Positions 1-17,756 of a stretch of DNA of 23,679 nt are shown here, piece after piece. How positions within the stretch are numbered: position 1 is the stretch's first letter; each line of letters begins with the position of its first letter. The position numbers and the translations under genes are program-made. A model generated the notes under the pieces. The model saw nothing but the letters and a program-made list of their open reading frames with translations. It ran no database searches and was not told where the DNA came from. Source of the DNA: a virus (lineage: Duplodnaviria; Heunggongvirae; Uroviricota; Caudoviricetes); the IMG/VR virus record IMGVR_UViG_2671180884_000031; one strand, written 5' to 3'.

Positions 1-1020
1 ATGAAAAGCATATTAATTGAAAAACCGAATCAACTGGCGATTGTCGAACGTGAAATACCCACCCCGTCAGCGGGTGAAGTACGAGTAAAAGTGAAACTTG
101 CCGGAATTTGTGGTTCAGATAGCCATATTTATCGTGGGCATAATCCTTTTGCGAAATATCCGCGCGTCATTGGACATGAATTCTTTGGCGTCATTGATGC
201 GGTGGGTGACGGCGTGGAAAGCGCCAGAGTCGGTGAACGTGTTGCTGTCGATCCGGTGGTCAGCTGTGGGCATTGCTATCCGTGCTCTATAGGTAAACCG
301 AACGTTTGTACGACACTTGCTGTATTAGGTGTGCACGCTGACGGTGGTTTCAGTGAATATGCCGTGGTTCCGGCAAAAAATGCGTGGAAAATTCCTGAAG
401 CAGTGGCCGATCAATATGCGGTGATGATCGAACCTTTTACCATTGCGGCTAACGTAACCGGACATGGTCAACCGACTGAAAATGATACCGTTCTGGTTTA
501 TGGTGCCGGTCCAATCGGCCTGACGATCGTTCAGGTATTAAAAGGCGTCTATAACGTTAAAAATGTGATTGTTGCCGATCGCATTGATGAACGACTGGAA
601 AAAGCGAAAGAGAGCGGGGCAGACAGGGCGATTAATAACAGCCAGACACCGCTTGGCGAGATTTTCGCTGAAAAAGGCATCAAGCCGACATTAATTATCG
701 ATGCGGCTTGTCATCCTTCTATCCTGAAAGAGGCCGTAACGCTGGCTTCTCCAGCGGCACGTATTGTATTGATGGGCTTCTCCAGTGAACCGTCTGAAGT
801 GATTCAGCAAGGAATTACCGGAAAAGAACTCTCTATTTTCTCTTCACGCTTAAATGCAAATAAATTTCCGGTTGTTATCGACTGGTTAAGTAAAGGGTTA
901 ATTAAACCAGAAAAATTAATTACCCATACGTTTGATTTCCAGCATGTTGCTGATGCCATTAGTTTATTTGAACAGGATCAAAAACATTGCTGCAAAGTCT
1001 TACTCACTTTTTCCGAATAA
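1..1020 (+). CDS. rspB: Zn-dependent alcohol dehydrogenase family protein (starvation-sensing protein RspB)
   Basis: Full 339-aa ORF; GHEFxG and CGxCxxC zinc-ADH motifs and GAGPIG Rossmann motif visible in the translation; matches recalled RspB end to end. Confidence 0.85.
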   Translation: MKSILIEKPNQLAIVEREIPTPSAGEVRVKVKLAGICGSDSHIYRGHNPFAKYPRVIGHEFFGVIDAVGDGVESARVGERVAVDPVVSCGHCYPCSIGKPNVCTTLAVLGVHADGGFSEYAVVPAKNAWKIPEAVADQYAVMIEPFTIAANVTGHGQPTENDTVLVYGAGPIGLTIVQVLKGVYNVKNVIVADRIDERLEKAKESGADRAINNSQTPLGEIFAEKGIKPTLIIDAACHPSILKEAVTLASPAARIVLMGFSSEPSEVIQQGITGKELSIFSSRLNANKFPVVIDWLSKGLIKPEKLITHTFDFQHVADAISLFEQDQKHCCKVLLTFSE

Positions 1021-1077
1021 TACCAATAACGGCGAGTAAGTAGTACGCATCTTACCTCTTTTTTAGAGATAACCATT

Positions 1078-1170
1078 ATGACAATAGAAAAACATGAAAG
1101 AAGCACTAAGGATTTGGTGAAAGCAGCAGTATCGGGATGGCTGGGCACTGCGCTTGAATTTATGGATTTC
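1078..1170 (+). pseudogene. ydfJ: 5' fragment of an MFS transporter gene (ydfJ-like) truncated by the prophage insertion
   Basis: ATG at 1078 encodes MTIEKHERSTKDLVKAAVSGWLGTALEFMDF, a ProP/ShiA-type MFS N-terminus; similarity ends about 1170 and the frame stops at 1188. In K-12, ydfJ is recalled as split by Qin. Confidence 0.45.
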
Positions 1171-1207
1171 AAGAGTCATGCGTGTTAACTATTTGATAAA
1201 TATTAAA

Positions 1208-2488
1208 TTAATTTTTCATTGCTTCGTTATGGGGCATGGTTGGGGCAAACTCGCTTAACTGTGTATTTAACAAAGCTACCTGTGCATTATTGTTTTCAGA
1301 CATCCATTTTCCGTATACCTGAAATACCATTTGCGCATCTGCATGGCCCATCTGGTTTGCTATAAATGCCGGGTTAGCACCAGCTGTCAGCGACCAGCAG
1401 GCATAAGTATGTCTCGACTGATATGATTTTCGATGGCGGAGTCCGGCACGTTTTATCGCTGCGTCCCACATCTGCCTTATTGAGTCAACGGTAAAATGGT
1501 CACCATAATTTTTTACTCTCGCTGACACTTCAGGTTGAAAAACAAAGGTGCATTTTTGTTTTTCTGTTCTGCCATACTCTCTGAGGTGAACATCAATGAT
1601 ATGCTCTTTGCTCAGTCTCGTTAATGTCATCTGACTCCGGAGAGCGTCGATTGCTGGCTTAATAAGATGAATGACCCGATTGGTTCCCGCCTGTGTTTTT
1701 GGTACCGTGAAACGGTCTTTTGCTAAATTTCTCCTGATCATCATTGTTCCATTTTTCAGATCTATGTCCTCCCATCCAAGTGCACACAGCTCACCAGGGC
1801 GAACGCCAGTATAAACAGAAACACACCATAAATTTTTTGCTTGCTGATTTCTGCACGCATCGATAAGACGGATAAATTCTTCCCGCGAAAGAGGATCCGG
1901 AATGGTTCTTGATTCCTTTAATGGCGAGATCCCCTTAAACGGATTATCTGCCAGGTAACCGTTATCAACACCAAACTGGAACACGGCGTTAAGATTTGTC
2001 ATGTAATTATTTACAGTTACAGCCGATCTCCCTGGTTGTGTAACAATATAGTTACTTTTGGGGATCTGGTATCCAGTCAGTAACTCTTTACGAGCCTCCA
2101 GTAATTTTTCTTTATTAATCGATGAGGCAAGATTTTTTTCACCGATTATGCTCAGGATATTTTTGATGACGGCACGGTATGTGTTGAGTGATGTTTTGGC
2201 GACTTCAGTTTCTTTCAGTGCCAGAAATTTTTCAGCCAGTTCTTTTATGGTTAAATCTTGTCGGGCCTCACCAAATTTTTCCAGATTGCGTGAGGAGGGA
2301 AACTGTTTTGCATAGTCGAAAACACCAGTTTTTATTGCGTAACAAACAGAGGAGCGTAGTTCACCTGCAACGCGCCTGTTTTTTGCTGTGTCAGGAACCC
2401 CCAGATTTTCCCTGACTCTTACGCCTTTATAAACAAACCAGATACGTAATTTCCCTCCATGGTTTTCCACGCCTGTCGGATATTTCAT
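1208..2488 (-). CDS. Lambdoid prophage tyrosine integrase, intact (IntR/IntQ-like)
   Basis: ORF 1208..2503; N-terminus KYPTGVENHGGKLRIWF resembles the Rac IntR arm-binding region, and the C-terminus carries RPGEL, HxxRHT and a catalytic Y. Start at 2488 preferred because an AGAGAAG SD-like sequence precedes it; 2503 is the alternative. Confidence 0.8.
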   Translation of the reverse strand: MKYPTGVENHGGKLRIWFVYKGVRVRENLGVPDTAKNRRVAGELRSSVCYAIKTGVFDYAKQFPSSRNLEKFGEARQDLTIKELAEKFLALKETEVAKTSLNTYRAVIKNILSIIGEKNLASSINKEKLLEARKELLTGYQIPKSNYIVTQPGRSAVTVNNYMTNLNAVFQFGVDNGYLADNPFKGISPLKESRTIPDPLSREEFIRLIDACRNQQAKNLWCVSVYTGVRPGELCALGWEDIDLKNGTMMIRRNLAKDRFTVPKTQAGTNRVIHLIKPAIDALRSQMTLTRLSKEHIIDVHLREYGRTEKQKCTFVFQPEVSARVKNYGDHFTVDSIRQMWDAAIKRAGLRHRKSYQSRHTYACWSLTAGANPAFIANQMGHADAQMVFQVYGKWMSENNNAQVALLNTQLSEFAPTMPHNEAMKN

Positions 2489-2522
2489 TTCAACTTCTCT
2501 CATTAGTTAGTGTGGCTTTTAG

Positions 2523-2774
2523 TCAAGTAAGATGACGTCTTGGTCTCGCTGATGCCTGGCGCTCAATCCAGCGATCAATTTCTTCCAGGTTGTAAAAGCA
2601 TGGACTGTTATCCCATGGCATACCGTCATGAGCGACATGCTTATATTCCCTTCCTTCCATAAACGATTTTTCCCGGGCCTTTTTTAACGTACCTTTTTTT
2701 ATTCCTTTCAGCGCAATTAACTGCTCTTCGGATACCCATTTGCCGGGAGAGACAATCATGATTACTTCGCTCAT
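2523..2774 (-). CDS. Excisionase-like small protein
   Basis: 83-aa basic ORF directly upstream of and co-oriented with the integrase; position and size are typical of lambdoid xis. Confidence 0.55.
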   Translation of the reverse strand: MSEVIMIVSPGKWVSEEQLIALKGIKKGTLKKAREKSFMEGREYKHVAHDGMPWDNSPCFYNLEEIDRWIERQASARPRRHLT

Positions 2775-2846
2775 CGATTTCTTTATCTCTTACATCAGAC
2801 GAGCGCCGGTTGCAGAATACCAGTCACAACCGGCGACAGTTGAACA

Positions 2847-5324
2847 TTAAGAATCAGCCTGACTCGGGATCAGTTTTTGCCAGATAACTGAAACGTATTT
2901 TGCCTGGTAACGGGCGTCATCAAGTGCATTATGGCGCTCACCTTCGAATGGAATAGCCGTTCTGGCATCGAAGTCTATGGCTTTCCCCAGCTCAACGATT
3001 GTGCGTACATCGCGATCGTTGTAGTAACGCCACGGGCAGGGGATCCCCTGCCGCTCGTATGAACGGCGCAAAATCGTGTTGTCGAAGTTGGCTCCATTTC
3101 CCCAGACCTGAACAAAAAATTCACCGGAGTTTTCGTCGATAAATTCCCGCAATTGTAACAGTGCATCATCTAACGGGATTTCATCGGTCATAATGGCAGA
3201 TTGCGCTTCGCGTGATTGCTTAAGCCACCATTTAATGGTGTCCCGATCAATGACTCCGCCAGCAGTTTCCAGATCGATAGTCTTACTAAATTCCGGTCCC
3301 ATATCTCCGGTTTGCGGATCGAAAAATATTGCACCTATTGAGATGATCGGGGCATCAGGATTTTTTCCCATGGTTTCAAGGTCGATCATTAGATGGTCAC
3401 ACGTCCTGCTGGTGGATGTGATTTCGTGATGACCGTTCACCTTAATTGAGCGATCTGCCGTCTCGCCAGTTTCATTATCGCTATCGTGATGCTGATTGCC
3501 GCCAGTGTTCTCCTTGTGTGGATGTTCAGCGCCTTCCATTTCCTCCGGATCATCTTCCTGAACTTCAACCTGATACTCTTCATCGAATGTTTCCTGGTAT
3601 GTTGCGTCGCCCATCACCGCGCCACAATCAGGGCAGTTGCCGCCGCCGGTCTGACCGCAGGCGGTGCAGACTTTTTCCACTTCCTGTTGCGCCACTGGTT
3701 CAGGCTGTTTCGTTTCTGGCTCGTTTTGTAACGCATTTGGGCTGTTTTGTTCCGCTTTTTGGTAGTTCCGTTCCGATTCATGCTGGTTCTGGTTCACAGA
3801 ATCGCGGGTCTGGATCCCCTTAACCCATTTCGGATCATTCGGGTCACTAATCCCTTCAACAAATTCACCACGTGATGCAGCAAGCAACTTATCGGCGTCA
3901 GGCTGGCTGATATTGGCTGCCTGCATAATTTTGTTTACTTCGTCAGCGGTAACTTTTATCGGCTCTGGTTGTTCTGAATCTTCAGCGGTATCTACATTTT
4001 GCGGTAAGCCCGTGTATGTGCCATTTTTTCGGGCAAAATATTCTTCTTTTGTGATTTCAGTGGCGCCAGCAGCCAGTGCCTTATCCAGACCAGAAAGTTT
4101 GTTTGCGCGACCGTATTTTTCTCCGTCCTTATCTGCGAAGAGGAAATAGAACGGCCCCTCACGCTCTACAGATGGTTCAGCTTCCGGCGCGGTTTCATTT
4201 TTTGGGATATCAGATACCTCGGTTTCCACTGCATCAGTTTGTGTTTCTGATGACTGGAGAACATCAACAGTGCCCGGGTCTGTTTCTTCATTCTCAAACA
4301 CGCCCTTTGTCGTCAGGTATTCGCAGATATATTTGTTCAGTGCTACGGGATCTTTGTGAATGTCGATCGGACGCTCACGGACAAGGCCAAAAATAGTTTG
4401 GCGGTCGTAGCGAAGGGCATCAGGCTGTTTGCGCATTGATGCCGAGATACGCTTCCAGTCTTCGCGGTCGTTGTCGATAACTTCTTTTTTTGCCCAGCGA
4501 TGGATGCTGCCGTCAATGTTTCCGGCATCCACATCACCAGGCCAGAGAGCGTAGGCCAGTTCGTCATCCAGTGTTTTCCATGTCTGCTTGTATTCGCGAT
4601 GAATGGCAGCAATGACCGGGCTGATTTTTCCTGTTGAATTTTCAGTGTACTGTTGATTGGCTTTGGCGCGGGCGAGATCAACAACAGACGTGTATTTTCC
4701 GGTTTCCTTGCGTTCACCTTCGCGACGTTTTTTCCAGATGCGCATCTCTGCCTGAATTTCGGGCCATTTAGCACCAGGAATACATTTATGCTTAACCCAC
4801 CCAATGGCGTGCAACTTAAGCTCCGGATACATGGCGTTAACTTCTGGCATTTTCATCAACGCTTCAACGATATGTCCGTCGAATGTTGCCATGTCTTCCT
4901 GCAACAATTCCTGTGCGCTAATAACCATATCAACGGTGATGTTTTCACATGTGTCGAACTTAACCATGACAGCGTTCTGTACTTCAGGGGCCAGCTTGTC
5001 AAAAGTGACGTTCATCGGATCGGATTCAGTCTCAACCGGGACAAAAGAAGCAGACTCCTCATCCCAGCGGTTTTCCTGCATATATTCAGCATCCCATGAA
5101 TCGAGGGCAGGGCGGGGTATGCCAGGTTTATCCTCGCAGACAATAAATTTATAAGCGCAGTCCTGAGCAGCCGGATAATGTTCCAGGAACTGCCAGTGAA
5201 ATTTTGCTCGAGCACGGCGTTCGTCGCCAGCTTCAATGGCTGTGGCTACAGCCACAGCCACAGCGCCTTCTTCCCTTGTTGCCAGTTCGTCAGGAATAGC
5301 GGCGCAAATAAAGACTTTACTCAT
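2847..5324 (-). CDS. Prophage exonuclease (RecE/exodeoxyribonuclease VIII-like) with C-terminal DEDDh 3'-5' exonuclease domain
   Basis: 825-aa ORF; the C-terminal ~200 aa carry MIDLETMG (Exo I) and HNALDDARYQAKY (Exo III, H-x4-D); an acidic Q/E-rich middle and a CTACGQTGGGNCPDCG zinc-ribbon-like motif precede it. Sits where K-12 has the ydfE fragment. Confidence 0.6.
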   Translation of the reverse strand: MSKVFICAAIPDELATREEGAVAVAVATAIEAGDERRARAKFHWQFLEHYPAAQDCAYKFIVCEDKPGIPRPALDSWDAEYMQENRWDEESASFVPVETESDPMNVTFDKLAPEVQNAVMVKFDTCENITVDMVISAQELLQEDMATFDGHIVEALMKMPEVNAMYPELKLHAIGWVKHKCIPGAKWPEIQAEMRIWKKRREGERKETGKYTSVVDLARAKANQQYTENSTGKISPVIAAIHREYKQTWKTLDDELAYALWPGDVDAGNIDGSIHRWAKKEVIDNDREDWKRISASMRKQPDALRYDRQTIFGLVRERPIDIHKDPVALNKYICEYLTTKGVFENEETDPGTVDVLQSSETQTDAVETEVSDIPKNETAPEAEPSVEREGPFYFLFADKDGEKYGRANKLSGLDKALAAGATEITKEEYFARKNGTYTGLPQNVDTAEDSEQPEPIKVTADEVNKIMQAANISQPDADKLLAASRGEFVEGISDPNDPKWVKGIQTRDSVNQNQHESERNYQKAEQNSPNALQNEPETKQPEPVAQQEVEKVCTACGQTGGGNCPDCGAVMGDATYQETFDEEYQVEVQEDDPEEMEGAEHPHKENTGGNQHHDSDNETGETADRSIKVNGHHEITSTSRTCDHLMIDLETMGKNPDAPIISIGAIFFDPQTGDMGPEFSKTIDLETAGGVIDRDTIKWWLKQSREAQSAIMTDEIPLDDALLQLREFIDENSGEFFVQVWGNGANFDNTILRRSYERQGIPCPWRYYNDRDVRTIVELGKAIDFDARTAIPFEGERHNALDDARYQAKYVSVIWQKLIPSQADS

Positions 5325-5417
5325 TTTGTTTTAACCTCATGACAGATTTAAGGATGAACAAATCCCTGCCATTGCTGGCATATAAGAATGAAACCGGATA
5401 TTTATTACGGAACTGTT

Positions 5418-5609
5418 TTAAAGACCTGCCGGGATTTCGATATTATCCTGGTGAATAACTTTATCGACCGGGTAACAGTTACCGGGAATTTTCTGTTCGG
5501 TTGCTGCAGTCATACACTCCTGCATTGTCCTGTGAACACTGACTGCAATATCAACTGGCTCTCCGGAAACAAGAAAAACTGTCAGAACAAGCGCAAATGC
5601 TGAATTCAT
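5418..5609 (-). CDS. ydfD: Small lysis/membrane protein YdfD (63 aa)
   Basis: Internal-Met product MNSAFALVLTVFLVSGEPVD... matches recalled YdfD; ATGA start/stop overlap with dicB. Confidence 0.75.
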   Translation of the reverse strand: MNSAFALVLTVFLVSGEPVDIAVSVHRTMQECMTAATEQKIPGNCYPVDKVIHQDNIEIPAGL

Positions 5610-5794
5610 TGTGCACATCCTTTTGGCATCAGACGTAAACGAGCCAGCATTGAAACAATGCATATTTTATTTAATAGCTCCCGTTCTTGTTTTCTCTTGT
5701 TAATGGCATCTTCAGTAAATACAGGGTTACTGATAGTGACACCAATTTCAAAACAACCTTCAGACGTATTAACGTTTGGTAATAACGTTTTCAT
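5606..5794 (-). CDS. dicB: Cell-division inhibitor DicB (62 aa)
   Basis: MKTLLPNVNTSEGCFEIGVTISNPVFTEDAINKRKQERELLNKICIVSMLARLRLMPKGCAQ from ATG at 5794 with a GAGGA SD upstream; matches recalled DicB. Confidence 0.85.
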   Translation of the reverse strand: MKTLLPNVNTSEGCFEIGVTISNPVFTEDAINKRKQERELLNKICIVSMLARLRLMPKGCAQ

Positions 5795-5967
5795 TATCGC
5801 GTCCTCAACAATGAATTTTGTGATGCAGTGCCTGGTGCCTCCAGGTGACGTTAACCAGTTAACAATTAACGCCGGATACAGAGAATCCACCCATAACACT
5901 GTTTTTGGTTTTAACTGTTCCGCGTGCGCTTAGCCGCATTCACCGCATCACAAAATTCACTTTAAAA

Positions 5968-6021
5968 ACGGCGGTAGAGCAGTCACGGAGTAAAACTGAT
6001 ACTGCCAAACGTCACCAGAAA
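5968..6021 (-). ncRNA. dicF: DicF small regulatory RNA (ftsZ-targeting antisense sRNA)
   Basis: Minus strand reads TTTCTGGTGACGTTTGGCAGTATCAGTTTTACTCCGTGACTGCTCTACCGCCGTTTTT, near-identical to recalled K-12 DicF, ending in a GC stem plus T-run; lies ~170 bp upstream of dicB as in K-12. Confidence 0.8.
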
Positions 6022-6052
6022 ATTGATAACAGAGGGCGTTGCAGCGGGGTTG

Positions 6053-6244
6053 TCACTTAAGCGTATGGTCAACCTGACAACTCGGTGTCCTCAACGGGGA
6101 AGGAATAACCCCGCCATACTTACCGCCGCGCCATTTCGCGGGTTGCCACAACCGGAAGCGCACGGTCGAATTAAATTTAACGACACCGTACAGTGAGACG
6201 AACTTCGCCGTGCGCTTTCGTGTTGTGTGCCTGCTTTTAACCAC
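6053..6244 (-). CDS. Hypothetical small basic protein in the ydfC position
   Basis: 63-aa ORF ending ~30 nt upstream of DicF, where K-12 has ydfC; no recognisable sequence features. Confidence 0.2.
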   Translation of the reverse strand: MVKSRHTTRKRTAKFVSLYGVVKFNSTVRFRLWQPAKWRGGKYGGVIPSPLRTPSCQVDHTLK

Positions 6245-6280
6245 GTCAGGCGAGGTGGTATCCTTAAAATCACCACAGTT

Positions 6281-6856
6281 TTAAGGATTCATTAAGCAAT
6301 GTCGCAACCACCAATAAATCCGCTTAAGAACATGAAAATTGATTACTGGTATAAAGCGCTTACAGTTGTTGGCGCTGCGTTGTTTGTCTTTAATGGAACG
6401 TCTTTTTTTGACAGATATCCCGTTGTTCCATTGGGTTTTTTGTCCTCCGGCATCTTTTTTATTGGTTTGGGGGAGTGGATTAATCACCCTCTCAAGGTGA
6501 GATTTATTGGTCCTGGAGTTTGGACTCGTGGATATAATCGTTCTTCGTGCGCACTCGGTATCATCTTCGACATACTTGGTTGTTTCCTGATTGTTACAGG
6601 AGTCGTCAAGTTCTTCTGATGTAAAACCGCAAATGGGGCACGTAACGGGAATTTTGAAAAGCGTTTCTCCGGGTTCCAGAACAAAATTTTCTGCGGTCTG
6701 ATTTTGCTTCTCATATTTGTGCTCCGCGTCATTGTGAGAGCACATTCTTATTCTGAGTGCCTGTTTAAACTCACTGAAGCTGAGAGCTTCTTCGCCTTCG
6801 GCAAGGCCTTCGAAGTATTCTTCGTAAGCCTTTTCCATGATTGTGTCGAAATCCAT
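6281..6856 (-). CDS. YdfB-like protein; 3' extent uncertain (the part at 6281..6619 may be an antisense shadow of the plus-strand membrane ORF)
   Basis: ATG at 6856 sits one nt after the ydfA stop; MDFDTIMEKAYEEYFEGLAEGEEALSFSEFKQAL resembles recalled YdfB (42 aa in K-12), but the frame stays open for 191 codons and includes a CPICGF motif. Confidence 0.35.
   Translation of the reverse strand: MDFDTIMEKAYEEYFEGLAEGEEALSFSEFKQALRIRMCSHNDAEHKYEKQNQTAENFVLEPGETLFKIPVTCPICGFTSEELDDSCNNQETTKYVEDDTECARRTIISTSPNSRTNKSHLERVINPLPQTNKKDAGGQKTQWNNGISVKKRRSIKDKQRSANNCKRFIPVINFHVLKRIYWWLRHCLMNP
6332..6619 (+). CDS. Hypothetical small membrane protein (three predicted TM segments)
   Basis: ORF 6299..6619; from the internal Met: MKIDYWYKALTVVGAALFVFNG...VVPLGFLSSGIFFIGLGEWI...SSCALGIIFDILGCFLIVTGVV. 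Convergent with, and codon-aligned antisense to, the minus-strand ORF 6281..6898, so only one of the two is likely real. Confidence 0.4.
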   Translation: MKIDYWYKALTVVGAALFVFNGTSFFDRYPVVPLGFLSSGIFFIGLGEWINHPLKVRFIGPGVWTRGYNRSSCALGIIFDILGCFLIVTGVVKFF

Positions 6857-6857
6857 A

Positions 6858-7013
6858 TCACTCACCTGAGTTTCTTTCCAGCCAGCGACGGGCACCATTT
6901 TCGGTTTTAAACGTTTTGCTTTTGGTATACGTCATCGCGGTGAACGTGCCGTCCTGGTTGGGGAACACGCCACATACCAGAGATTCGCTGTTGCCAAGAT
7001 CGATAGTATCCAT
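6858..7013 (-). CDS. ydfA: Small prophage protein YdfA (51 aa)
   Basis: MDTIDLGNSESLVCGVFPNQDGTFTAMTYTKSKTFKTENGARRWLERNSGE from ATG at 7013; matches recalled YdfA. Confidence 0.75.
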   Translation of the reverse strand: MDTIDLGNSESLVCGVFPNQDGTFTAMTYTKSKTFKTENGARRWLERNSGE

Positions 7014-7093
7014 GCTGACCTCATTTCCCCTTAACGCCGGGGTGGCGGAACTGTTTGCTGAGAACACCGTGCGGTGTGTTGATGTAAACAAGA

Positions 7094-7107
7094 TTAGCCA
7101 TGACTAA
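7094..7107. promoter_or_regulatory. Candidate DicA operator (TTAG-N6-CTAA palindrome) in the dicB-operon promoter region
   Basis: TTAGCCATGACTAA lies between dicA and ydfA; the same TTAG-N6-CTAA architecture recurs twice in the dicA-dicC intergenic region. Confidence 0.5.
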
Positions 7108-7157
7108 CATATTGGTCAAGTGATTTTGTATGTTATGGCTAACATAATTGATATAAT

Positions 7158-7188
7158 AAAAGATAACTCATTGATGATGTTATCTTTT
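7158..7188 (-). terminator. Candidate intrinsic terminator after dicA
   Basis: Perfect 10-bp inverted repeat AAAAGATAAC / GTTATCTTTT with an 11-nt loop, overlapping the dicA stop codon and followed on the minus strand by an A/T-rich tract. Confidence 0.4.
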
Positions 7189-7587
7189 ATTTGTCCGCTG
7201 ACGGGCTTTTAGTAATTCTTCAAAGAGTTTATTGAAATTTTTTACTCGAGCTCGCATTTCGGCGAGCTGGGTATCCTGTTCTGATTCTGGCAGTGCATTA
7301 AACAGCTCAAGGAGCTCTAGTTCTTTGGGGGCTAAGGCAACCGGCTTCTCAACAGGTGGTGTTGGTTGCTTGTCTTCATCGCCAAATAGAATCCATGTTG
7401 GTGAGCATTGCAATACTTTGCTGAGGGCAAAAAGGTTCTTCCCTGTAGGTTCACTATCATCCCGTTCCCATTGTGATACAGACACATGGGAGATTTTCAG
7501 GGCTTTAGCAAGAGACCTTTGGGTGTGTTTGAGGTTTTTCCGACGATACCTAATGCGTTCGCCGATGGTTAAATTTTTTGTATCCAT
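7180..7587 (-). CDS. dicA: HTH-XRE repressor DicA (135 aa)
   Basis: MDTKNLTIGERIRYRRKNLKHTQRSLAKALKISHVSVSQWERDDSEPTGKNLFALSKVLQCSPTWILFGDE...; XRE-type helix-turn-helix; matches recalled DicA. Confidence 0.85.
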   Translation of the reverse strand: MDTKNLTIGERIRYRRKNLKHTQRSLAKALKISHVSVSQWERDDSEPTGKNLFALSKVLQCSPTWILFGDEDKQPTPPVEKPVALAPKELELLELFNALPESEQDTQLAEMRARVKNFNKLFEELLKARQRTNKR

Positions 7588-7589
7588 AG

Positions 7590-7603
7590 TTAGCTAATGC
7601 TAA
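7590..7603. promoter_or_regulatory. Candidate DicA operator in the dicA-dicC divergent promoter region
   Basis: TTAGCTAATGCTAA (TTAG-N6-CTAA) starts 3 bp upstream of the dicA start codon. Confidence 0.45.
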
Positions 7604-7638
7604 ATCGTATTGACTATGTTTTTGTTAACATCTATTTT

Positions 7639-7654
7639 GTTAGTCATGACTAAC
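7639..7654. promoter_or_regulatory. Candidate DicA operator, perfect 16-bp palindrome
   Basis: GTTAGTCATGACTAAC is its own reverse complement; located 17 bp upstream of dicC. Confidence 0.55.
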
Positions 7655-7670
7655 ATCTAAGGTGTTTTAA

Positions 7671-7901
7671 ATGCTTAAAACTGACGCTCTTTTGTATTTC
7701 GGTTCAAAAACAAAACTTGCACAAGCAGCAGGTATTCGTTTGGCTTCGCTTTATAGCTGGAAAGGGGATTTAGTTCCCGAAGGTCGCGCGATGCGTCTAC
7801 AGGAGGCATCTGGCGGGGAGCTTCAGTATGATCCCAAAGTTTATGACGAATATCGTAAGACGAAGCGGGCGGGGCGGTTGAACAATGAAAATCACTCCTG
7901 A
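7671..7901 (+). CDS. dicC: Cro-like regulator DicC (76 aa)
   Basis: MLKTDALLYFGSKTKLAQAAGIRLASLYSWKGDLVPEGRAMRLQEASGGELQYDPKVYDEYRKTKRAGRL...; divergent from dicA. Confidence 0.8.
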   Translation: MLKTDALLYFGSKTKLAQAAGIRLASLYSWKGDLVPEGRAMRLQEASGGELQYDPKVYDEYRKTKRAGRLNNENHS

Positions 7902-8406
7902 ACAGGCTCGTGAGGCTCTGGATGCCTGGATATGTCGACCAGGAATGACACAGGAGCAGGCGACGATATTAATCACTGAAGCATTCTGGGCTTTGAAAGA
8001 GCGCTCGAACATCGATGTTCAGCGTGTCACATATGAAGGTGGCGCGGTTGATCAGCGAGCGCTTAGCGTTAATCGAGTGAAGATATTTGAACGCTGGAAG
8101 GCTATCGACACCAGGGATAAGCGTGAAAAGTTCACAGCGCTAGTGCCTGCAATTATGGAGGCTATCCGGATTAGTGATTTCAGGTTGTATCGTGAAATTA
8201 GTGACGGAAAGAGCATTACGTACATGATCGCTGGGTTAAATAAAGAATATGGCGATGTGGTGGAGTCCGGACTGCTTTTTGCAGATCCTGCCGTTGTAGA
8301 TCGTGAAACTGACGAACTTATAGAAAAAGCAATTGCTTTCAAGCTTGCGTATCGACAGCAATACCAACAAAAAGCTGGATGGAATTATGAGTCTTCTTTT
8401 TGCTGA
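7885..8406 (+). CDS. YdaT-like prophage protein (CII-like regulator / toxin YdaT family)
   Basis: 173-aa ORF overlapping the dicC 3' end by 17 bp; KREKFTALVPAIMEAIRISDFR resembles the Rac YdaT segment QREKIQKLIPAILAILPRELR. Confidence 0.5.
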   Translation: MKITPEQAREALDAWICRPGMTQEQATILITEAFWALKERSNIDVQRVTYEGGAVDQRALSVNRVKIFERWKAIDTRDKREKFTALVPAIMEAIRISDFRLYREISDGKSITYMIAGLNKEYGDVVESGLLFADPAVVDRETDELIEKAIAFKLAYRQQYQQKAGWNYESSFC

Positions 8407-9352
8407 ACGCCCACTGGTTATAAACACGCAGCTGGCAATGAAAATCGGCTTAAACGAAGCCATTGTTTTGCAACAACTGCACTACTGGTTGAGAGATACC
8501 AACTCCGGTATGGAATGTGATGGTGTTCGCTGGATTTATAACACAACGGAACAATGGCTGGAACAGTTCCCATTCTGGTCAGAGTCAACGTTAAAGCGCG
8601 CGTTTGCAAGTCTGAAAACGCTGGGGCTTTTGCGTTGTGAAAAGCTCAATAAATCAAAGCGCGATATGACCAATTTCTACACGATCAACTATGGGAGCGA
8701 GCTTTTAGATGGTGGCAAATTGAACGAATCCATCGGTTCAAAATGCGCCGCTCCATCAGGTCAAAATGACACGATGGAAGAGGTCAAAATGAAACGCTCC
8801 ATTGGTTCAAAACGACCCAATGTCATCGGGTCAAAATGGCCTGATGATCTTACAGAGAATACAACAGAGATTACTACAGAGAATAAAAACACTTTTCGTC
8901 CGGAAGCTTCGCAACCGGACCCGCAGACGACTGAACAGGATTTTTTAACCCGGAACCCCGACGCGGTTGTGTTTAGTGTGAAAAAACGCCAGTGGGGTAG
9001 CAGGGAGGATTTGGCGTGTGCGCAGTGGATTTGGGGGCGGATCGTGAACCTTTACGAACAGGCTGCCAGCGACGATGGAGAGATCATGCGACCAAAAGAG
9101 CCTAACTGGACAGCCTGGGCCAATGACGTGCGCACAATGCGGATGCTGGATGGCAGAAGCCATAGACAAATTTGCGAAATGTTTGGTCGGGTACAGCGGG
9201 ATCCATTCTGGGTAAAAAACATCATGAGCCCGTCAAAACTCCGCGAAAAATGGGACGAACTGGTCATCCGCCTGGGACGTTCACCTGAACAGCGTTGTGT
9301 GAATCATATTTCTGAACCGGATACAGAAATTCCGCCTGGTTTCAGAGGATAA
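8387..9352 (+). CDS. Phage replication initiation protein (lambda O-like replisome organiser) with internal iteron array
   Basis: ORF 8333..9352 with the likely start at ATG 8387; the N-terminal wHTH-like segment, an SIGSK-repeat middle encoded by DNA iterons, and the position after the cro/cII-like genes all fit an O-like initiator. Confidence 0.55.
   Translation: MSLLFAERPLVINTQLAMKIGLNEAIVLQQLHYWLRDTNSGMECDGVRWIYNTTEQWLEQFPFWSESTLKRAFASLKTLGLLRCEKLNKSKRDMTNFYTINYGSELLDGGKLNESIGSKCAAPSGQNDTMEEVKMKRSIGSKRPNVIGSKWPDDLTENTTEITTENKNTFRPEASQPDPQTTEQDFLTRNPDAVVFSVKKRQWGSREDLACAQWIWGRIVNLYEQAASDDGEIMRPKEPNWTAWANDVRTMRMLDGRSHRQICEMFGRVQRDPFWVKNIMSPSKLREKWDELVIRLGRSPEQRCVNHISEPDTEIPPGFRG
8729..8838. 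repeat. Iteron array, candidate prophage replication origin inside the O-like gene
   Basis: Five direct repeats of ~CATCGGTTCAAAATG at ~23-bp spacing (starting near 8729, 8752, 8777, 8798, 8822), followed by an A-rich ACAGAGA-repeat tract. Confidence 0.6.
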
Positions 9353-9392
9353 GTTTTGATTTCAGGTCATGAGGTAATTTTAAGGGGGACTT

Positions 9393-9794
9393 GTGGCAAA
9401 AGTTTTTACACAAGAAGAGCGGGAAAAAATTAAAGGGCAGGTGGTGGAACTCGTGCGCCAGAGTGGTCGTGAGACGTTACGGCAACTGGAAGCTAAAACA
9501 GGTGCGACTAGATATCTGATGAGCGTTCTTGCCAGAGAGCTGGTAGCCAGTGGCGATGTATACAACTCCGGCTACGTGTTATTCCCGTCTGAACAGGCGC
9601 GTAAGGACTGGCAAAACGCCCGCAAAAAACTATCGAGGGCAAAGGTGAAGAAAACAGCTGTGGTTGATCCGGACCTTATCTGGTCGTTACCTGATGGAGA
9701 AATACGTCGCTACGACAGTCGCCTAAACATAATCTGTCGCGAGTGCCGGATGAGTGAAGTTATGCAGCGCATACTGGCATTTTATCAGGGATAA
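9393..9794 (+). CDS. Hypothetical protein (GTG start), possibly replication-associated
   Basis: 133-aa ORF with an AGGGGG SD 5-6 nt upstream of GTG 9393; immediately follows the O-like gene. Confidence 0.45.
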   Translation: MAKVFTQEEREKIKGQVVELVRQSGRETLRQLEAKTGATRYLMSVLARELVASGDVYNSGYVLFPSEQARKDWQNARKKLSRAKVKKTAVVDPDLIWSLPDGEIRRYDSRLNIICRECRMSEVMQRILAFYQG

Positions 9795-9897
9795 TGTTAG
9801 GTATTTTAGACGTTACTAGATTAAAAAGCATTAGTTCAGGAGTGAATTGACATTCTCATTTTTCATGGCACAGGGTAGATCTGGCGTGGTTGTCCGC

Positions 9898-9918
9898 TTT
9901 GTGCCAGGAGCGGACGTT
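9898..9918. repeat. att-like repeat copy A (left boundary of cargo module 1)
   Basis: TGTGCCAGGAGCGGACGT (9900..9917) recurs exactly at 12452..12469 and in degenerate form at ~13998..14015. Confidence 0.5.
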
Positions 9919-10007
9919 GCTAATGGCATGATGTATGAACCAATGGAGAACCGATCATCTATACACATATAGATCCCTAACGAAAATATTGTTTTCACTA
10001 GCCCTGT

Positions 10008-10044
10008 AATGGAAGCGTTAATTTTATATTCTAACGCTTCCATT
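10008..10044. repeat. Perfect 13-bp inverted repeat (hairpin) downstream of the SDR gene
   Basis: AATGGAAGCGTTA (10008..10020), 11-nt loop, TAACGCTTCCATT (10032..10044); no flanking U-tract on either strand. Confidence 0.4.
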
Positions 10045-10096
10045 GAGCCTACCACTTTGGCAAAGCAATTCTTACACTTCAAAATAATGTGCTTTT

Positions 10097-10843
10097 TTAT
10101 TCAGCTAAATAACCGCCATCGATTGGATAAACGCCTCCGGTACAGAATGTAGAACTGTCTGACAGCAAGAACAATATGAAGTCTGCTATTTCCTGCATTT
10201 TTGCCATCCTTTTCATAGGGTGGCTATTTGCGAAACTACTTACAATATTTTCAGGGAACTCACTCATTCTTTGGGTTTGGACATAGCCCGGAGCGACTGC
10301 ATTGATTCGAATGCCTTGACATGCAAACTCTAGCGCTGCGGTTTGGGTTAAACCGATTATACCATGTTTAGCCACGGTGTAAGGTGCTAATCCAGGAATG
10401 CCAACCAGACCATTTACTGCAGATAAATTAACTATAGATCCACCAAACTTCATCATCTGGGGTATTTCATATTTTAGGCAGTGAAAAACGCCGCTCAATG
10501 AGGTAGCAATAACCTTATCCCAGTTTTCAACTGTCTGCTCTGTTATATTTTTACCATGTTCACCTGTTAAGCCTGCATTATTTACAGCATAATCAAGTCT
10601 GCCGAAATGTTTGATAACCTCATCTATCATTTGCCGTACTTGTTCGGGCTGTGACACATCACATCCGATCCCCATGGCTTGTTGTCCCTGTGAAGATAAT
10701 TGTTCCGCTTTTTGTTTAGCCTGTTCTGACGAGCGGGATACAATAACAACTTTTGCACCATGCTTATGTAATTGCTCTGCGACGGCCTCACCTATACCTG
10801 TAGTGCTTCCTGTTATAACGGCAATTTTATTCTGGAAATTCAT
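10097..10843 (-). CDS. SDR-family (short-chain dehydrogenase/reductase) oxidoreductase
   Basis: TGSTTGIG cofactor-binding motif, NNAG, catalytic YTVAKHG (YxxxK); start at ATG 10843 with a GGGGGTGG SD. Confidence 0.8.
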   Translation of the reverse strand: MNFQNKIAVITGSTTGIGEAVAEQLHKHGAKVVIVSRSSEQAKQKAEQLSSQGQQAMGIGCDVSQPEQVRQMIDEVIKHFGRLDYAVNNAGLTGEHGKNITEQTVENWDKVIATSLSGVFHCLKYEIPQMMKFGGSIVNLSAVNGLVGIPGLAPYTVAKHGIIGLTQTAALEFACQGIRINAVAPGYVQTQRMSEFPENIVSSFANSHPMKRMAKMQEIADFILFLLSDSSTFCTGGVYPIDGGYLAE

Positions 10844-10914
10844 AACCACCCCCTATGAAGTAGAATTGAGTCTTTCATCTGGGATAGTATACAAACCATC
10901 TGTGACAGTTTTTG

Positions 10915-11604
10915 TCAGTACTCTTTCCCCTCGCAGATCCCTTCTTTTATTCTCCATTTTTTCAATAAAATTGTCCTGCTTTCACTATAGTTGGAGTCAA
11001 GTTGCACAATATCTTCAATTTTGTCAGTTCTAAAATGACGAAAATCATTTCTCATCTCGCACCATGCAACCAAAAGCCAGCACGATTCCATGTATACCAA
11101 TCCGATGGGCCATATGACTCGTGAAGTGTAAGAATCTTTTTTATCACAATAATTTATTTTGATTTTCTTTCTTTTTTTTATAGCATTGCGAATGTCTTCA
11201 AAAAAAATCTCATTGTTTTCTGATGGACCGATCAGATAGGATTGACTCTCAATAAGATTTTTCAATTCACTGGGAATGACGGCGTGTATTTTCGCAAGCG
11301 CATTCTTTGCGGTAATTTTGAAATTATAATCTGTATTGTGCGATACCCAATTTAACCCAAGTGTAATAGCATTAATTTCTTCATGAGAAAGATTTAAGGG
11401 GGGCAAATGAAAGTCAGATTTAACAATATAACCAATTCCAGCACCACCTTCAATGCATACTCCTTGATGCTGCAGCGTTTTTATATCTCTGTAAAGGGAG
11501 CGTACACTTATTCCCAATCTTTCTGAGAGGATGGATGCTGTGATCGGATATCTTTGTGCCCTTAATATTTGTAGTAACTCGAGAAGTCTTTCTGTTCTAG
11601 TCAT
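10915..11604 (-). CDS. YafY-family transcriptional regulator (N-terminal HTH plus WYL-type ligand-binding domain)
   Basis: From the internal Met: MTRTERLLELLQILRAQRYPITASILSERLGISVRSLYRDIKTL..., a DeoR/YafY-type HTH followed by a WYL-like region; directly upstream of and co-oriented with the SDR gene. Confidence 0.6.
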   Translation of the reverse strand: MTRTERLLELLQILRAQRYPITASILSERLGISVRSLYRDIKTLQHQGVCIEGGAGIGYIVKSDFHLPPLNLSHEEINAITLGLNWVSHNTDYNFKITAKNALAKIHAVIPSELKNLIESQSYLIGPSENNEIFFEDIRNAIKKRKKIKINYCDKKDSYTSRVIWPIGLVYMESCWLLVAWCEMRNDFRHFRTDKIEDIVQLDSNYSESRTILLKKWRIKEGICEGKEY

Positions 11605-11822
11605 GTTGATAAATCCATTTTGAGGCGATTTCTTAAAGCATCTGTTAGATAAACATATTAGTACAAAGCAAGTGTACATGGCTAAGCTGAACTGCTACCG
11701 ATGATTAATACAGCGCTATGTTCGTAATGCGTACATAAGCGGTGATCATGAGTGTAAACATCCGCTTTTCGCTTATAAGGGACAACCATACTCAAATTTC
11801 CCACATTGCAGGAGATTTGAGT

Positions 11823-12425
11823 ATGAATACGTCACCGTGGAACAAAGACCGTATCATCGGCCAAAAAAGACCACTTCAGATATCTCATATCTGGGGGATC
11901 CGAATCCGGCTTGAACTGGAAGGTAAAACGCGCGATTTAGCTCTGTTCAATATGGCCCTGGACAGTAAGCTTCGAGGCTGTGATCTGGTCAAACTCAAAG
12001 TATCGGATGTGGCATATGGTAGTTCGGTTTCAAGCAGAGCAACGGTGTTGCAACAGAAAACCGGTAGCCCTGTGCAATTCGAGATAACCAAAGGGACAAG
12101 AGAAGCTGTTGCTGCATTGATAAAGCTTGGCAATTTGCACAGTAAAGACTTCTTGTTTCGGTCTCGGGTCGGAACTAACCAGCACATTTCAACCCGGCAA
12201 TACAACCGAATCTTTCATGGGTGGATAGAAAAACTTGGTCTCGAAGGTTCACTTTACAGCACACATTCAATGAGAAGAACAAAACCTTACCTGATCTACA
12301 AGAAAACCAAGAATCTCCGGGTGATCCAACTTCTGTTGGGTCATAAGAAACTGGAAAGCACAGTCCGTTATCTGGGCATTGAAGTCGATGATGCGTTAGA
12401 GATCTCTGAATCGATTGAAGTCTAA
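11823..12425 (+). CDS. Short tyrosine site-specific recombinase (~200 aa, phage-integrase family catalytic domain)
   Basis: AGGAG SD before ATG 11823; C-terminal HSMRRT...LLGHKKLESTVRYL carries the R/H-x-x-R ... Y catalytic signature. Confidence 0.65.
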   Translation: MNTSPWNKDRIIGQKRPLQISHIWGIRIRLELEGKTRDLALFNMALDSKLRGCDLVKLKVSDVAYGSSVSSRATVLQQKTGSPVQFEITKGTREAVAALIKLGNLHSKDFLFRSRVGTNQHISTRQYNRIFHGWIEKLGLEGSLYSTHSMRRTKPYLIYKKTKNLRVIQLLLGHKKLESTVRYLGIEVDDALEISESIEV

Positions 12426-12433
12426 GGTTGTCA

Positions 12434-12469
12434 GGGCTGCAACAGCAGCCCTGTGCCAGGAGCGGACGT
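12434..12469. repeat. att-like repeat copy B: hairpin GGGCTGC-AACA-GCAGCCC plus TGTGCCAGGAGCGGACGT core
   Basis: Begins 9 nt after the recombinase stop codon; hairpin plus a core identical to copy A. Confidence 0.5.
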
Positions 12470-12576
12470 CTAGTTCGCTGAACCACAAAAAGTCGTTTCT
12501 AGTTATATTACTGGCTCATTAGTATCTTTATGCGATAATATTTCATACAACCAAAATTATGATGAAGGGAGTTCAA

Positions 12577-13698
12577 ATGGCAATTACGGTCTATTCTCGT
12601 ACATTCAAAAAGGAATTGGACATGGTTCAATTGTTAAACCATTACTCATCAGATAACGCACTCAATTTCAGTGATTTCAAGGAATTTGTTGCCTTTGATG
12701 CAGAGTGCCCAATTTGCAATGTAAGCGGTGCGATTGTTGTTTCAGAAGGTTATTCGAAAAGAACAAATAAGATAGTCAGCCAATCTCATTTTGCGTTTAG
12801 AACAAAAGACGGAACTGATGCACACAAAGTATTTTGCGATCATTACAGTGGTGATGATAAGCAAATAGATTCATCAAGGGATGGTTTTATAAAATTCGGC
12901 ACCTCAGGTTCTGAGATTACAAGTATAATTCGCGAGCTTGTATGTAGAGGTATTGAACATGATGAGTTCAATCAGGAAGATATTCGAAACATGCGGCAAT
13001 GGTTTACAGAATTACGCCAGTCAGGCACTTTTTCTGTTAACTATAGCCCTCACATGATCAATCTAATAAGGGCCAGCATGTATTCCCGTAAGGGAGAAAG
13101 TAAATATATTGTAGATGAAGAGAGGAAAAATAAATCTTGGTTTGATATAAACGATGAAGTGTATCGTTCGTTAAGATTCAAATATCCATCATTGATGATC
13201 GACATGACTAATGAAAATAATTCTGTTTTCTATAATCTTGTGAATAGTACCACATTTACTAAACAAGCACATCGATTAGTAGCACGAGATCGAGGTTATC
13301 AGGTTTATGATAGAAGGTTGCTTAAAGAAAAATATGAAGCAACGATAAGAGTTGCACAAAAAATAACCAGGCATCACGAATTTCTTTTTAGGAAAATCAG
13401 GGGTATATCCGCTGTTAAAAAAAACAACCCCCTTTTGGCTGTATCTGCCTTGCTTCTTTTTGTCTCGGACTGGAATGAAACAACTGCAATCAACAAATTC
13501 ATCAAATTGTGTGGTGTAGGGAAATCTAAAAATAATGATGAGGGGAATGTAATTGGCTTAAATCCCTTTATTCATTACGATGTCTGGAATGTTATTCATC
13601 AACTTAAGGATTTAATGGTTACACTTCCAGACTTCTCAAATCTTGATGAAGAATTTGACAGAGAAAAATCCAGATTAATTGAACTTTACAAGCTCTAA
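12577..13698 (+). CDS. Hypothetical protein, 373 aa, AT-rich cargo gene; candidate accessory/anti-phage function
   Basis: GAAGGGAG SD 5 nt before ATG 12577; N-terminal CPIC ... HKVFCDH cluster suggests a metal-binding site; no family recognised by eye. Confidence 0.7.
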   Translation: MAITVYSRTFKKELDMVQLLNHYSSDNALNFSDFKEFVAFDAECPICNVSGAIVVSEGYSKRTNKIVSQSHFAFRTKDGTDAHKVFCDHYSGDDKQIDSSRDGFIKFGTSGSEITSIIRELVCRGIEHDEFNQEDIRNMRQWFTELRQSGTFSVNYSPHMINLIRASMYSRKGESKYIVDEERKNKSWFDINDEVYRSLRFKYPSLMIDMTNENNSVFYNLVNSTTFTKQAHRLVARDRGYQVYDRRLLKEKYEATIRVAQKITRHHEFLFRKIRGISAVKKNNPLLAVSALLLFVSDWNETTAINKFIKLCGVGKSKNNDEGNVIGLNPFIHYDVWNVIHQLKDLMVTLPDFSNLDEEFDREKSRLIELYKL

Positions 13699-13740
13699 CA
13701 TAAACTAGCAGGCTGCGTATACAGTCTGCTAATTTTCATA

Positions 13741-13970
13741 GTAAAGACTTCATGCTTCAGTCTCGAGTTGGAGCTATCCGTCACACATCACCCAGGCAAT
13801 TCAACCGAAATTTTTCATGGGGGGTAGAGAAGTTTTGTCTCGAAGATTTGCTTTACAGCATACTAATCATTGAACCTCTGTTGAACCATAAGAAACTGGC
13901 AAGCACAATCCGTTGCTTGGGCATTGAATTCGACGATGCGTCGTATAGCTCTGACTTGAACAAAACATAA
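13741..13970 (+). pseudogene. Degenerate duplicate of the tyrosine recombinase 3' end (remnant)
   Basis: About 75-80% nucleotide identity to 12142..12425 with an internal deletion; translation ...SRVGAIRHTSPRQFNRNF...LLNHKKLASTIRCLGIEFDDA parallels the recombinase C-terminus. Confidence 0.6.
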
Positions 13971-13978
13971 GGTTTTTA

Positions 13979-14015
13979 GGGCTGCAACAGCACCTCTGTG
14001 TCATAGGCGGAAGTT
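13979..14015. repeat. att-like repeat copy C (degenerate)
   Basis: GGGCTGCAACAGCACCTCTGTGTCATAGGCGGAAGT parallels copy B in the same position relative to the recombinase remnant. Confidence 0.45.
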
Positions 14016-14311
14016 AACAAACATTAAAATCTCTAAATCTGTAGGGATCAGACTCCTTCTATAAAAGGATACTGTTCATATCCTTAGTTGTATATAGGTG
14101 TGTTTAGAGTATTAGGATGCTAGTTTTGAAAATTAATTTTTTAAACATATTGAATTTTTTAAGAATTGGGAATAGTGTATAGCTTTGTCATGGCGGATTT
14201 TTTCTCTTCAAGTATTTATTTGAACACTACTTCTTGCACCTGCAAGGTTACAATATCGTGTAAATTTGTTCACAAAGACATAGATTATAATTTTTACTTA
14301 AAGGAAATTCA

Positions 14312-15565
14312 ATGTCAAAAAATCTCCCGGTTTTATTAAGCTCGCCATCAACAACTAATTTTCCTGCAACAGTTAATACTGAAATAGAATTCCTTTCGCA
14401 AGCTAGAAAGTTGTTAGATTCTGGCTTCCCTGATCATGCTCTTTTAGATATATGGAATGCATCCATTCATAATCTTAGGCGGCGAATTGAGGCTTATGGT
14501 TTAGACTTATTCCTTTCCGCAATAAAGGATGATAGTGGTCGTAAAAAATATGATAAAGATGGTGAAACAATAAACGAGAGATGGTCAGGTGTAGATGATT
14601 TAGTGCTAATAAGTGGAGCCACCAAATTAGGGGTTCTGCATAAGAAAGCTGGAAAATCATTAGAAATGATCAATTGGATGAGAAACCATGCCTCTCCAGC
14701 CCATGCAAGTGATAGTAAAGTAGAGTCTGAGGATGTGTTTGCTTTGGCTCTTATGCTCCAGAAGAATTTATTCGAATCTGATATGCCAGACCCTGGACAT
14801 TCGCCATCTGGATTATTTGAACCCATAAAAAAATCTGAACTATCAATTGAGAGCATAGACTTACTTAAAGATCAAATAAGAGCATTTAAGCAAGCTGATA
14901 TAAGAATAACATTTGGATTTTTATTGGATTTAATAACTAAGGGGGAAAATCCTGCTTATGTTAATGCTAGCAAGTTGTTTGAACAAGCATGGGAAAGATC
15001 TAATGATGACCTTAAAAAAACAGCGGGGGAAAGATATCACTCATTTATGCTGGAGCCCGAATCGGATACAAGTGAGGATAAAGGAGCAAAAATAAGAATT
15101 TTAGAGACTTTAGTAAAAGTTAATGGTGTGAAATTTATACCTGATGCTGCTAGGGCAAGTTTATACAGACATGCGGTTAAACAGCTAGCTAAAGCTAAGG
15201 ATACATCTTACGGCTGGAATGATGAAGAAAGAGCAGCCAAGGCACTTATACAATTTGGACCTCATGTTCCATCTATTGCTTTTGAAGATGTATATCAAGA
15301 AATACTTACTGTTTGGGTGGGGAATTACTGGGGAAGATCTGATGCACATTTAGTACTTCAACCATTTTTAGATGTGTTAAATAGTAATCAATTGATGGCT
15401 CTCTCACGGTTGTTCGTGGAGAATGAAAGAGCAAATTCAGAACTGGTGTCATCAAGGCCCAAAAGAAGAGCAATAGAATTACTTGAGATAATAAAAAATA
15501 ATCTAACAATTCAAGCAAGCATTGATGAAATTGATAGGATTATTTCTGAAATTGATAAAATGTAA
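14312..15565 (+). CDS. Hypothetical protein, 417 aa, with HEPN-like R-x6-H motif; candidate abortive-infection/defence protein
   Basis: AAGGAAA SD before ATG 14312; helical N-terminal region with WMRNHASPAH (R-x6-H) resembling the HEPN active-site motif; AT-rich; own terminator downstream. Confidence 0.7.
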   Translation: MSKNLPVLLSSPSTTNFPATVNTEIEFLSQARKLLDSGFPDHALLDIWNASIHNLRRRIEAYGLDLFLSAIKDDSGRKKYDKDGETINERWSGVDDLVLISGATKLGVLHKKAGKSLEMINWMRNHASPAHASDSKVESEDVFALALMLQKNLFESDMPDPGHSPSGLFEPIKKSELSIESIDLLKDQIRAFKQADIRITFGFLLDLITKGENPAYVNASKLFEQAWERSNDDLKKTAGERYHSFMLEPESDTSEDKGAKIRILETLVKVNGVKFIPDAARASLYRHAVKQLAKAKDTSYGWNDEERAAKALIQFGPHVPSIAFEDVYQEILTVWVGNYWGRSDAHLVLQPFLDVLNSNQLMALSRLFVENERANSELVSSRPKRRAIELLEIIKNNLTIQASIDEIDRIISEIDKM

Positions 15566-15577
15566 TTTATTTGCAAT

Positions 15578-15610
15578 TAAGCCATGCTTTTTAGGTGGCT
15601 TATTTTTTTT
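15578..15610 (+). terminator. Rho-independent terminator after the 417-aa gene
   Basis: AAGCCA ... TGGCTT stem followed by an 8-T run, 13 nt after the stop codon. Confidence 0.55.
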
Positions 15611-15882
15611 GAATCTACTACTTATATTGATATTAGCAATGTAATTGCTAAAGTATTCCTAGCCCACTATTCATCTAAATATGGTTGTCGAAAGGCCCGC
15701 TTCTCGCTCAAAGCGGACTAGAAGGTTAGCTTGTGTCGGACTTTGCGTATTAAATGACTAGTGGTTGAGCCCCATTTCCACAGAAAAAATCAGAGAAACT
15801 ATACCCAATAGTTGTATTGAATCACTGACGAGACAGCCTCATATTCATCAGGACTGGTGTACGTCCAATACAGGAGGTTGTG

Positions 15883-15972
15883 GTGCTGGTTCTCAAATGT
15901 GCGCTGGCTATTACGGCTGTAATGGCGATTTATTGTCTTGCTATTGTTCTTATGGATCGCCTTTCTGACTGA
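15883..15972 (+). CDS. Candidate small hydrophobic peptide (29 aa, GTG start), type-I-toxin-like
   Basis: Canonical AGGAGG SD (15872..15877), 5-nt spacer, GTG; product (M)LVLKCALAITAVMAIYCLAIVLMDRLSD is a single predicted TM helix. Overlaps a 67-aa Cys/Gly-rich ORF in another frame that is judged spurious. Confidence 0.3.
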   Translation: MLVLKCALAITAVMAIYCLAIVLMDRLSD

Positions 15973-16339: not shown

Positions 16340-16407
16340 GAGACCCGGCGAGGGAGAAATCCCTCGCCACCTCTGATGTGGCAGGCATCCTCAACGCACC
16401 CGCACTT

Positions 16408-17708: not shown

Positions 17709-17756
17709 ATGGGGCAATAGAGATATTGAATCTCATCCCGGGATAAACATTGGCAG

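Follow-up and report, generated by a model that had tools for sequence, protein, structure and literature searches.

The rspB-ydfJ'-int junction of a Qin-type lambdoid prophage, a very probable attL site within ydfJ of Escherichia coli

Gene content of the locus

The window analysed here, a stretch of 23,679 nt from IMG/VR virus record IMGVR_UViG_2671180884_000031, runs from E. coli rspB through a truncated ydfJ (ydfJ'), int and xis into a Qin-type lambdoid prophage, of which it covers the left half (Table 1). The leftmost gene bears the annotation rspB in every matching genome, thousands of E. coli genomes in all, and the ydfJ leader that follows it is still joined to the truncated ydfJ. Translation of positions 1078-1170, where an ATG opens at 1078, gives MTIEKHERSTKDLVKAAVSGWLGTALEFMDF, a peptide that a preliminary description of this DNA had taken for the 31-codon N-terminus of an MFS transporter; indeed, it agrees at every position (31/31) with residues 1-31 of the intact, 455-residue YdfJ of strain Ec-U9-1, and only beyond codon 31 do the two part, the window reading KSHAC* and intact YdfJ QLYS... 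The fragment thus matches the genuine N-terminus of a complete member of the family. The Ec-U9-1 protein passes the TIGR00883 model at 462.9 bits (cut-off 443.45) and also matches Pfam MFS_1; judged by these models, YdfJ is an MFS transporter of the MHS family (the metabolite/H+ symporter model of NCBIfam). A chance match is excluded, since more than 5,000 E. coli genomes have the same 93 nt along with rspB and the intergenic stretch that precedes them.

Base by base, the window is identical to the uninterrupted rspB-ydfJ locus up to 1170 and differs from it from 1171 onward; where a genome is annotated with a complete ydfJ, its megablast match stops at window 1170 or 1173. The loss of similarity that had been placed at about 1170 therefore falls exactly after that base, and uninterrupted ydfJ from prophage-free strains, the comparison that had been proposed as a check, aligns right up to the junction. 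The integrase stop had also been located correctly, its codon occupying 1208-1210 on the minus strand. A promoter and terminator consensus scan of positions 950-1350 on both strands found none, a result that has no bearing, either way, on a promoter for ydfJ or on a terminator separating the short open reading frame from int.

Table 1. Features of the window, with positions counted from its first letter
Feature	Position	Strand	Remarks
rspB, Zn-dependent oxidoreductase; host flank left of the prophage	1..1020	+	339-aa ORF; Pfam ADH_N and ADH_zinc_N
rspB-ydfJ intergenic region, 57 bp; ydfJ 5' leader and ribosome-binding region	1021..1077	+	Identical to the uninterrupted locus
ydfJ codons 1-31, host-derived part of attL	1078..1170	+	31/31 aa; DNA equal to attB up to 1170
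36-aa chimeric ORF (31 ydfJ codons, 5 phage codons and TAA), equal to K-12 ynfP (b4534)	1078..1188	+	Translation identical
Common core, TTATGGATTTC	1160..1170	+	Sole stretch identical in attL, attB and attR
P' arm, phage-derived, from core to int stop	1171..1207		Unlike attB; contiguous with the P arm in FORC_044
int, full-length tyrosine integrase, 431-aa ORF	1208..2503	-	Pfam Arm-DNA-bind_2 and Phage_integrase
Candidate arm-type Int sites, tandem TGGGGCA tggt TGGGGCA (TGGGGCATGGTTGGGGCA), 11-bp period	1230..1247	+	In the 3' coding end of int
xis, putative excisionase, 83 aa	2523..2774	-	Pfam DUF1233 putative excisionase, 1.6e-31
DicF sRNA	5969-6020	-	Rfam gathering-score match
sok antitoxin RNA, beside hokD	16015-16189	+	Rfam gathering-score match
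cspA-type thermoregulator leaders (cspB, cspI)	18083-18475, 20984-21369	+	Rfam gathering-score matches

The attachment core and the reconstruction of attB

The att sites were compared three ways, with attL taken from the window, attB from strain Ec-U9-1, and attR from the other end of the prophage in the closest complete genome, 2012EL-2448 (NZ_CP027586.1), attR itself lying outside the window. With the bar marking window 1170/1171, attL reads ...GCGCTTGAATTTATGGATTTC|AAGAGTCATGCG..., attB reads ...GCGCTTGAATTTATGGATTTC|CAGTTATATTCG..., and attR reads ...AACACCTGTGAATTATGGATTTC|CAGTTATATTCG... What the three have in common is the final 11 bases of the ydfJ-like segment, which comprise nucleotides 2-3 of codon 28 and codons 29-31 (Met-Asp-Phe), and so include the ATG of Met29. 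This 11-bp sequence occurs once in the window, against 0.01 copies expected by chance; a search across the window for a second copy that could serve as attR found none beyond 1160-1170, since the window stops within nohA and the right end of the prophage lies beyond it. In 2012EL-2448, the core recurs at L004 6286-6296, where it is followed directly by ydfJ codons 32 onward, and so both things that had been proposed as a check at the far end of the prophage, the attR repeat and the 3' part of ydfJ, are present there. When the left arm of attL and the core were joined to the right arm of attR, attB was rebuilt with 1 mismatch in 401 nt.

These comparisons bear out the preliminary view that an integrase-bearing prophage has its attL junction within ydfJ; they do not agree with the place assigned to the core, which had been expected within about 1165-1207. 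Only 6 of the 11 core bases fall inside that interval, and most of it, 1171-1207, is without counterpart in attB; as the core is common to attB and attP, it must end the ydfJ-similar stretch rather than lie past it. Two longer versions of the core were considered and set aside in favor of the ungapped 11 bp, the leftward one because it needs a one-T indel (TGAA-TTATGG in attP, TGAATTTATGG in attB), and the rightward one because positions 1172-1173 (AG) match only past one mismatch. The annotated limits of the K-12 Qin feature (1632277..1652745) imply an identical 11-bp core, and that feature ends 18 nt into ynfP, i.e., past codon 31, which corresponds to window 1170/1171. Read from these alignments, the left boundary of the prophage is 1170/1171.

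Integrase, excisionase and the phage arms

The start of int annotated by RefSeq in a near-identical strain corresponds to window 2488 and gives a protein of 426 aa. Int has an N-terminal arm-type DNA-binding domain (PF12167 Arm-DNA-bind_2, residues 9-72, 1.7e-23) and a catalytic domain (PF00589 Phage_integrase, 4e-18). When the latter was aligned to the Tn1549 Int structure 6emy, the R, R, H and Y residues were found in place, within 'tgvRpgE', 'sRHTya', 'mGH' and 'qvY'. The same alignment showed residues ~360-365 to read YQSRHT in place of the usual HxxRHT, the first conserved His being replaced by Tyr. The neighboring xis is labelled 'excisionase family protein' in 2012EL-2448, and both genes are uninterrupted in the window, with complete domains.

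A related but decayed element in the chromosome of FORC_044 (NZ_CP016755.1) has the P arm known from attR joined through the core to the P' arm known from the window, in one contiguous, attP-like sequence, 87.7% identical over 563 nt. This sequence (locus L002, 2855-3415) is flanked by a DinI-like gene on one side and by an integrase gene truncated at its N-terminus on the other, and adjoins remnants of IS66 and IS256. Its likeness to the P arm starts sharply at TGGGGCATATATGGGACA, ~136 bp left of the core, and here, at about -136, the P arm has a tandem pair, TGGGGCAtataTGGGACA, that matches the pair in P'. Both TGGGrCA pairs are kept in the related FORC_044 attP. As Int has an arm-binding domain, the four copies, which form two pairs of 11-bp period, may reasonably be proposed as candidate arm-type sites. 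The 7-mer by itself is not rare, with 4 copies in the window against 2.6 expected. An inverted TGGGGCC at about -114 was also considered as an arm site and was dropped, as it is not conserved in FORC_044.

The attL junction in E. coli genomes

The 501 nt that span the junction at window 900-1400 served as a megablast query against 5,426 complete E. coli genomes, of which 5,143 gave a match. The whole query was covered, denoting the same rspB-ydfJ'-int attL, in 2,694/5,426 genomes (50%), while an empty attB was found in 2,009/5,426 (37%). In the search for the empty site, the other genomes appear to have ydfJ divided at this same position, since in all those sampled the match to ydfJ begins 5 nt left of the core. 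With the 501-nt query, a small number of related copies of the integrase at other places gave matches that begin only at window 1155; one partial match on the integrase side, in the O157:H7 strain Z866, covers window 1155-1400 at 89.4% identity. In a survey of 638 strains Qin was found in 48%, at sizes of 11 to 97 kb (PMC6379469), and our count of the attL (50%) agrees with this published prevalence.

Origin of the junction

We consider it very probable, close to certain, that positions 1021-1207 constitute the attL (B-O-P') of a Qin-type lambdoid prophage in codons 28-31 of E. coli ydfJ, made by an integrase acting through the core. The lambda-like tyrosine integrase encoded at 1208-2503, which we infer to have made this junction, would have recombined phage attP with host attB through TTATGGATTTC; aided by arm-site binding, for which the TGGGrCA pairs would serve, and by host bending proteins as in lambda, it would have exchanged strands within the 11-bp core. 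The ydfJ leader and the first 31 codons stayed beside rspB, fused to five phage codons and a stop, and the other 424 codons were shifted to the far end of the prophage, ~48.7 kb off in the closest complete genome. There, at attR, the ATG of the core (Met29) heads a promoter-less ydfJ frame of 427 codons. The cost to ydfJ on the attR side is its promoter and 28 codons, and the attL side encodes a 36-residue chimera; Int and Xis together could, in principle, reverse the reaction. The junction may be called a textbook prophage junction, already present in the K-12 annotation and covered by published work. Qin is reported to enter ydfJ at its 5' end by site-specific integration, at the expense of 28 codons and the promoter (PMC6379469), and ydfJ is listed as the place of Qin insertion in four laboratory strains, namely E. 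coli W, K-12, B and Crooks (PMC3032704).

A different origin, in which illegitimate recombination, a deletion, a transposition or some other mobile element broke ydfJ and the integrase stands next to the break by coincidence, could appeal to the shortness of the core, only 11 bp, and to the report that Qin loci are hotspots for secondary insertions (PMC6379469). We regard such an origin as highly improbable: ydfJ is broken at the same nucleotide in all sampled genomes, the core stands as a direct repeat at both ends of the prophage, attB is reconstituted precisely, the junction adjoins int and xis in the canonical lambda order, and the P and P' arms are contiguous in the related FORC_044 element. 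Even less credible is the suggestion that the frame at 1078-1188, in full MTIEKHERSTKDLVKAAVSGWLGTALEFMDF-KSHAC*, is an independent small gene, ynfP, whose likeness to ydfJ is secondary. It is true that the K-12 record annotates a protein YnfP, and that the same 36-residue YnfP is listed (Table 1 of PMC6001520) among the small K-12 proteins for which chromosomal tagging gave a signal, which implies that the translation signals of ydfJ and some promoter activity survive at attL. However, being expressed does not give YnfP an origin of its own: codons 1-31 and the DNA upstream of them are identical to the start of the 455-codon ydfJ in 2,009 prophage-free genomes, its last five codons and stop are phage arm sequence, and the rest of the ydfJ codons are located at attR. 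YnfP is, in short, a chimera of gene fragments and no new gene.

Whether the prophage can still move is a matter apart from how the junction was made. It is quite possible, though we lean a little the other way, that the junction is a fossil, made by site-specific integration and belonging to a prophage that is now grounded, so that attL persists as a fixed, vertically inherited scar. Excision of Qin was not detected in K-12, where intQ is inactive (PMC3105296), int mutations occur in many Qin copies (PMC6379469), the window prophage has lost ydfT, the gene for the Q antiterminator, through a 1401-bp deletion, and the presence of the same attL in about half of the complete genomes fits long vertical inheritance. 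Against this, the window has uninterrupted int (431 aa) and xis (83 aa) with complete domains, its core and both pairs of candidate arm sites are intact, and in the closest genome, 2012EL-2448, the genes for head, tail and lysis are all there. The fossil reading, moreover, concerns present activity only and is in no conflict with the identity of the junction as attL. The window prophage itself may be defective, and it is unlikely to make phage because the 1401-bp deletion removes half of ydfU and all of ydfT. As int, xis, the core and both pairs of candidate arm sites are intact, unlike in K-12, we also considered a switch of the 'active lysogeny' type, in which reversible excision would restore a full-length, promoter-linked ydfJ to the sugar-acid locus rspAB-ydfJ-ydfI, and in which, in the meantime, the ydfJ promoter at attL would drive antisense transcription into the 3' end of int; we think this very unlikely.

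For the attL itself, the importance of these results beyond correct annotation (left boundary 1170/1171, core 1160-1170) is small. The window does carry a less decayed relative of K-12 Qin with int and xis intact, and a working integrase for the ydfJ site, a site taken up in about half of the sequenced E. coli, could conveniently be obtained from it.

Comparison with related prophages and with lambda

The complete genome nearest to the window is that of 2012EL-2448, which is 99.94% identical over window 1-17704 and, past a gap, 100% identical over 2,289 nt (window 17705-19993); via the adjoining locus L004, the match is 99.98% to the end of the window. The prophage of 2012EL-2448 measures ~48.7 kb from core to core and has the complete lambda-like terminase, portal, capsid, head, tail and lysis genes; at its far end stands a ydfJ truncated at the N-terminus, with ydfI behind it. 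The gap represents 1401 bp of this prophage that are absent from the window; the deletion, at window 17704/17705 (L003 36812-38212 of 2012EL-2448), takes out all of ydfT, the gene for the Q antiterminator, and the 3' half of ydfU. No microhomology was found at its breakpoints, and its junction was found in 0 of the 5,426 complete E. coli genomes. At window 5265 there is a 6-bp in-frame difference in the gene for an 825-aa exonuclease, the CACAGC of 2012EL-2448 being missing, and five more single-base differences from that strain lie within window 1-17704.

In strain SE11, a lambda-like prophage of 46.8 kb, PP_SE11-3, was described as lying 'between ydfJ and rspB' (PMC2608844); that paper reported no sequence duplication, whereas we found one of 11 bp. 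The best-known relative is the cryptic prophage Qin (Kim) of K-12 MG1655 (1632277..1652745), whose shared blocks are 97.6-99.3% identical to the window, the highest value being that of window 1-2367 (99.3%), a block that includes the surviving 3' part of intQ (b1579). Qin and the window have the same host flanks (rspB on one side and ydfJ-ydfI on the other), the same junction nucleotide and the same 11-bp core, and the K-12 record lists ynfP (b4534), an intQ pseudogene, and a 427-aa ydfJ (b1543) that starts at the ATG of the core. Also shared are dicA/dicC/dicB, DicF, hokD/sok, rem, cspB and cspI, as well as the lysis cassette essQ/rrrQ/rzpQ, ydfO, gnsB and nohA; by their Rfam matches, DicF, sok and the cspA-type leaders are the RNA landmarks expected of Qin. 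The blocks with this Qin gene content are 97.6-98.9% identical to K-12 Qin, and the genes annotated in the near-identical 2012EL-2448 are in agreement. K-12 Qin, however, is a remnant of 20.5 kb in which an IS2 fragment cuts intQ and ydfE and xis is absent, whereas the window has a full-length int, xis and the 825-aa exonuclease gene. The 1.4-kb ydfU'-ydfT deletion is private to the window in this comparison. Where K-12 Qin has relBE-ydfV-flxA, the window has cargo that comprises an SDR gene, a WYL regulator gene and orphan genes. This cargo block (10097-15565) encodes an SDR oxidoreductase of 250 aa, a WYL/HTH regulator of 254 aa and a truncated second tyrosine recombinase of 227 aa, along with two orphans of 379 aa (12559-13698) and 417 aa (14312-15565), neither of which gave a match in Pfam, NCBIfam or PADLOC. 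A WYL regulator beside genes of this kind in a prophage could be the mark of an uncharacterised defence module.

In phage lambda, attL (BOP') is followed by int and xis, such that the host arm, the core and the P' arm come in succession and then the two genes, transcribed toward the junction. The attL of the window has the same order, and resembles lambda further in the N-terminal arm-binding domain of its Int; it may also do so in its arm sites, for which the tandem sites of P' and the pair at about -136 in P are candidates. It differs from lambda in its core sequence and in its target, which is intragenic in ydfJ rather than intergenic between gal and bio, and in the family of its arm-binding domain, PF12167 in the window Int. 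Finally, the int stop is just 37 bp from the core, and the candidate P' sites consequently lie inside the int coding sequence.
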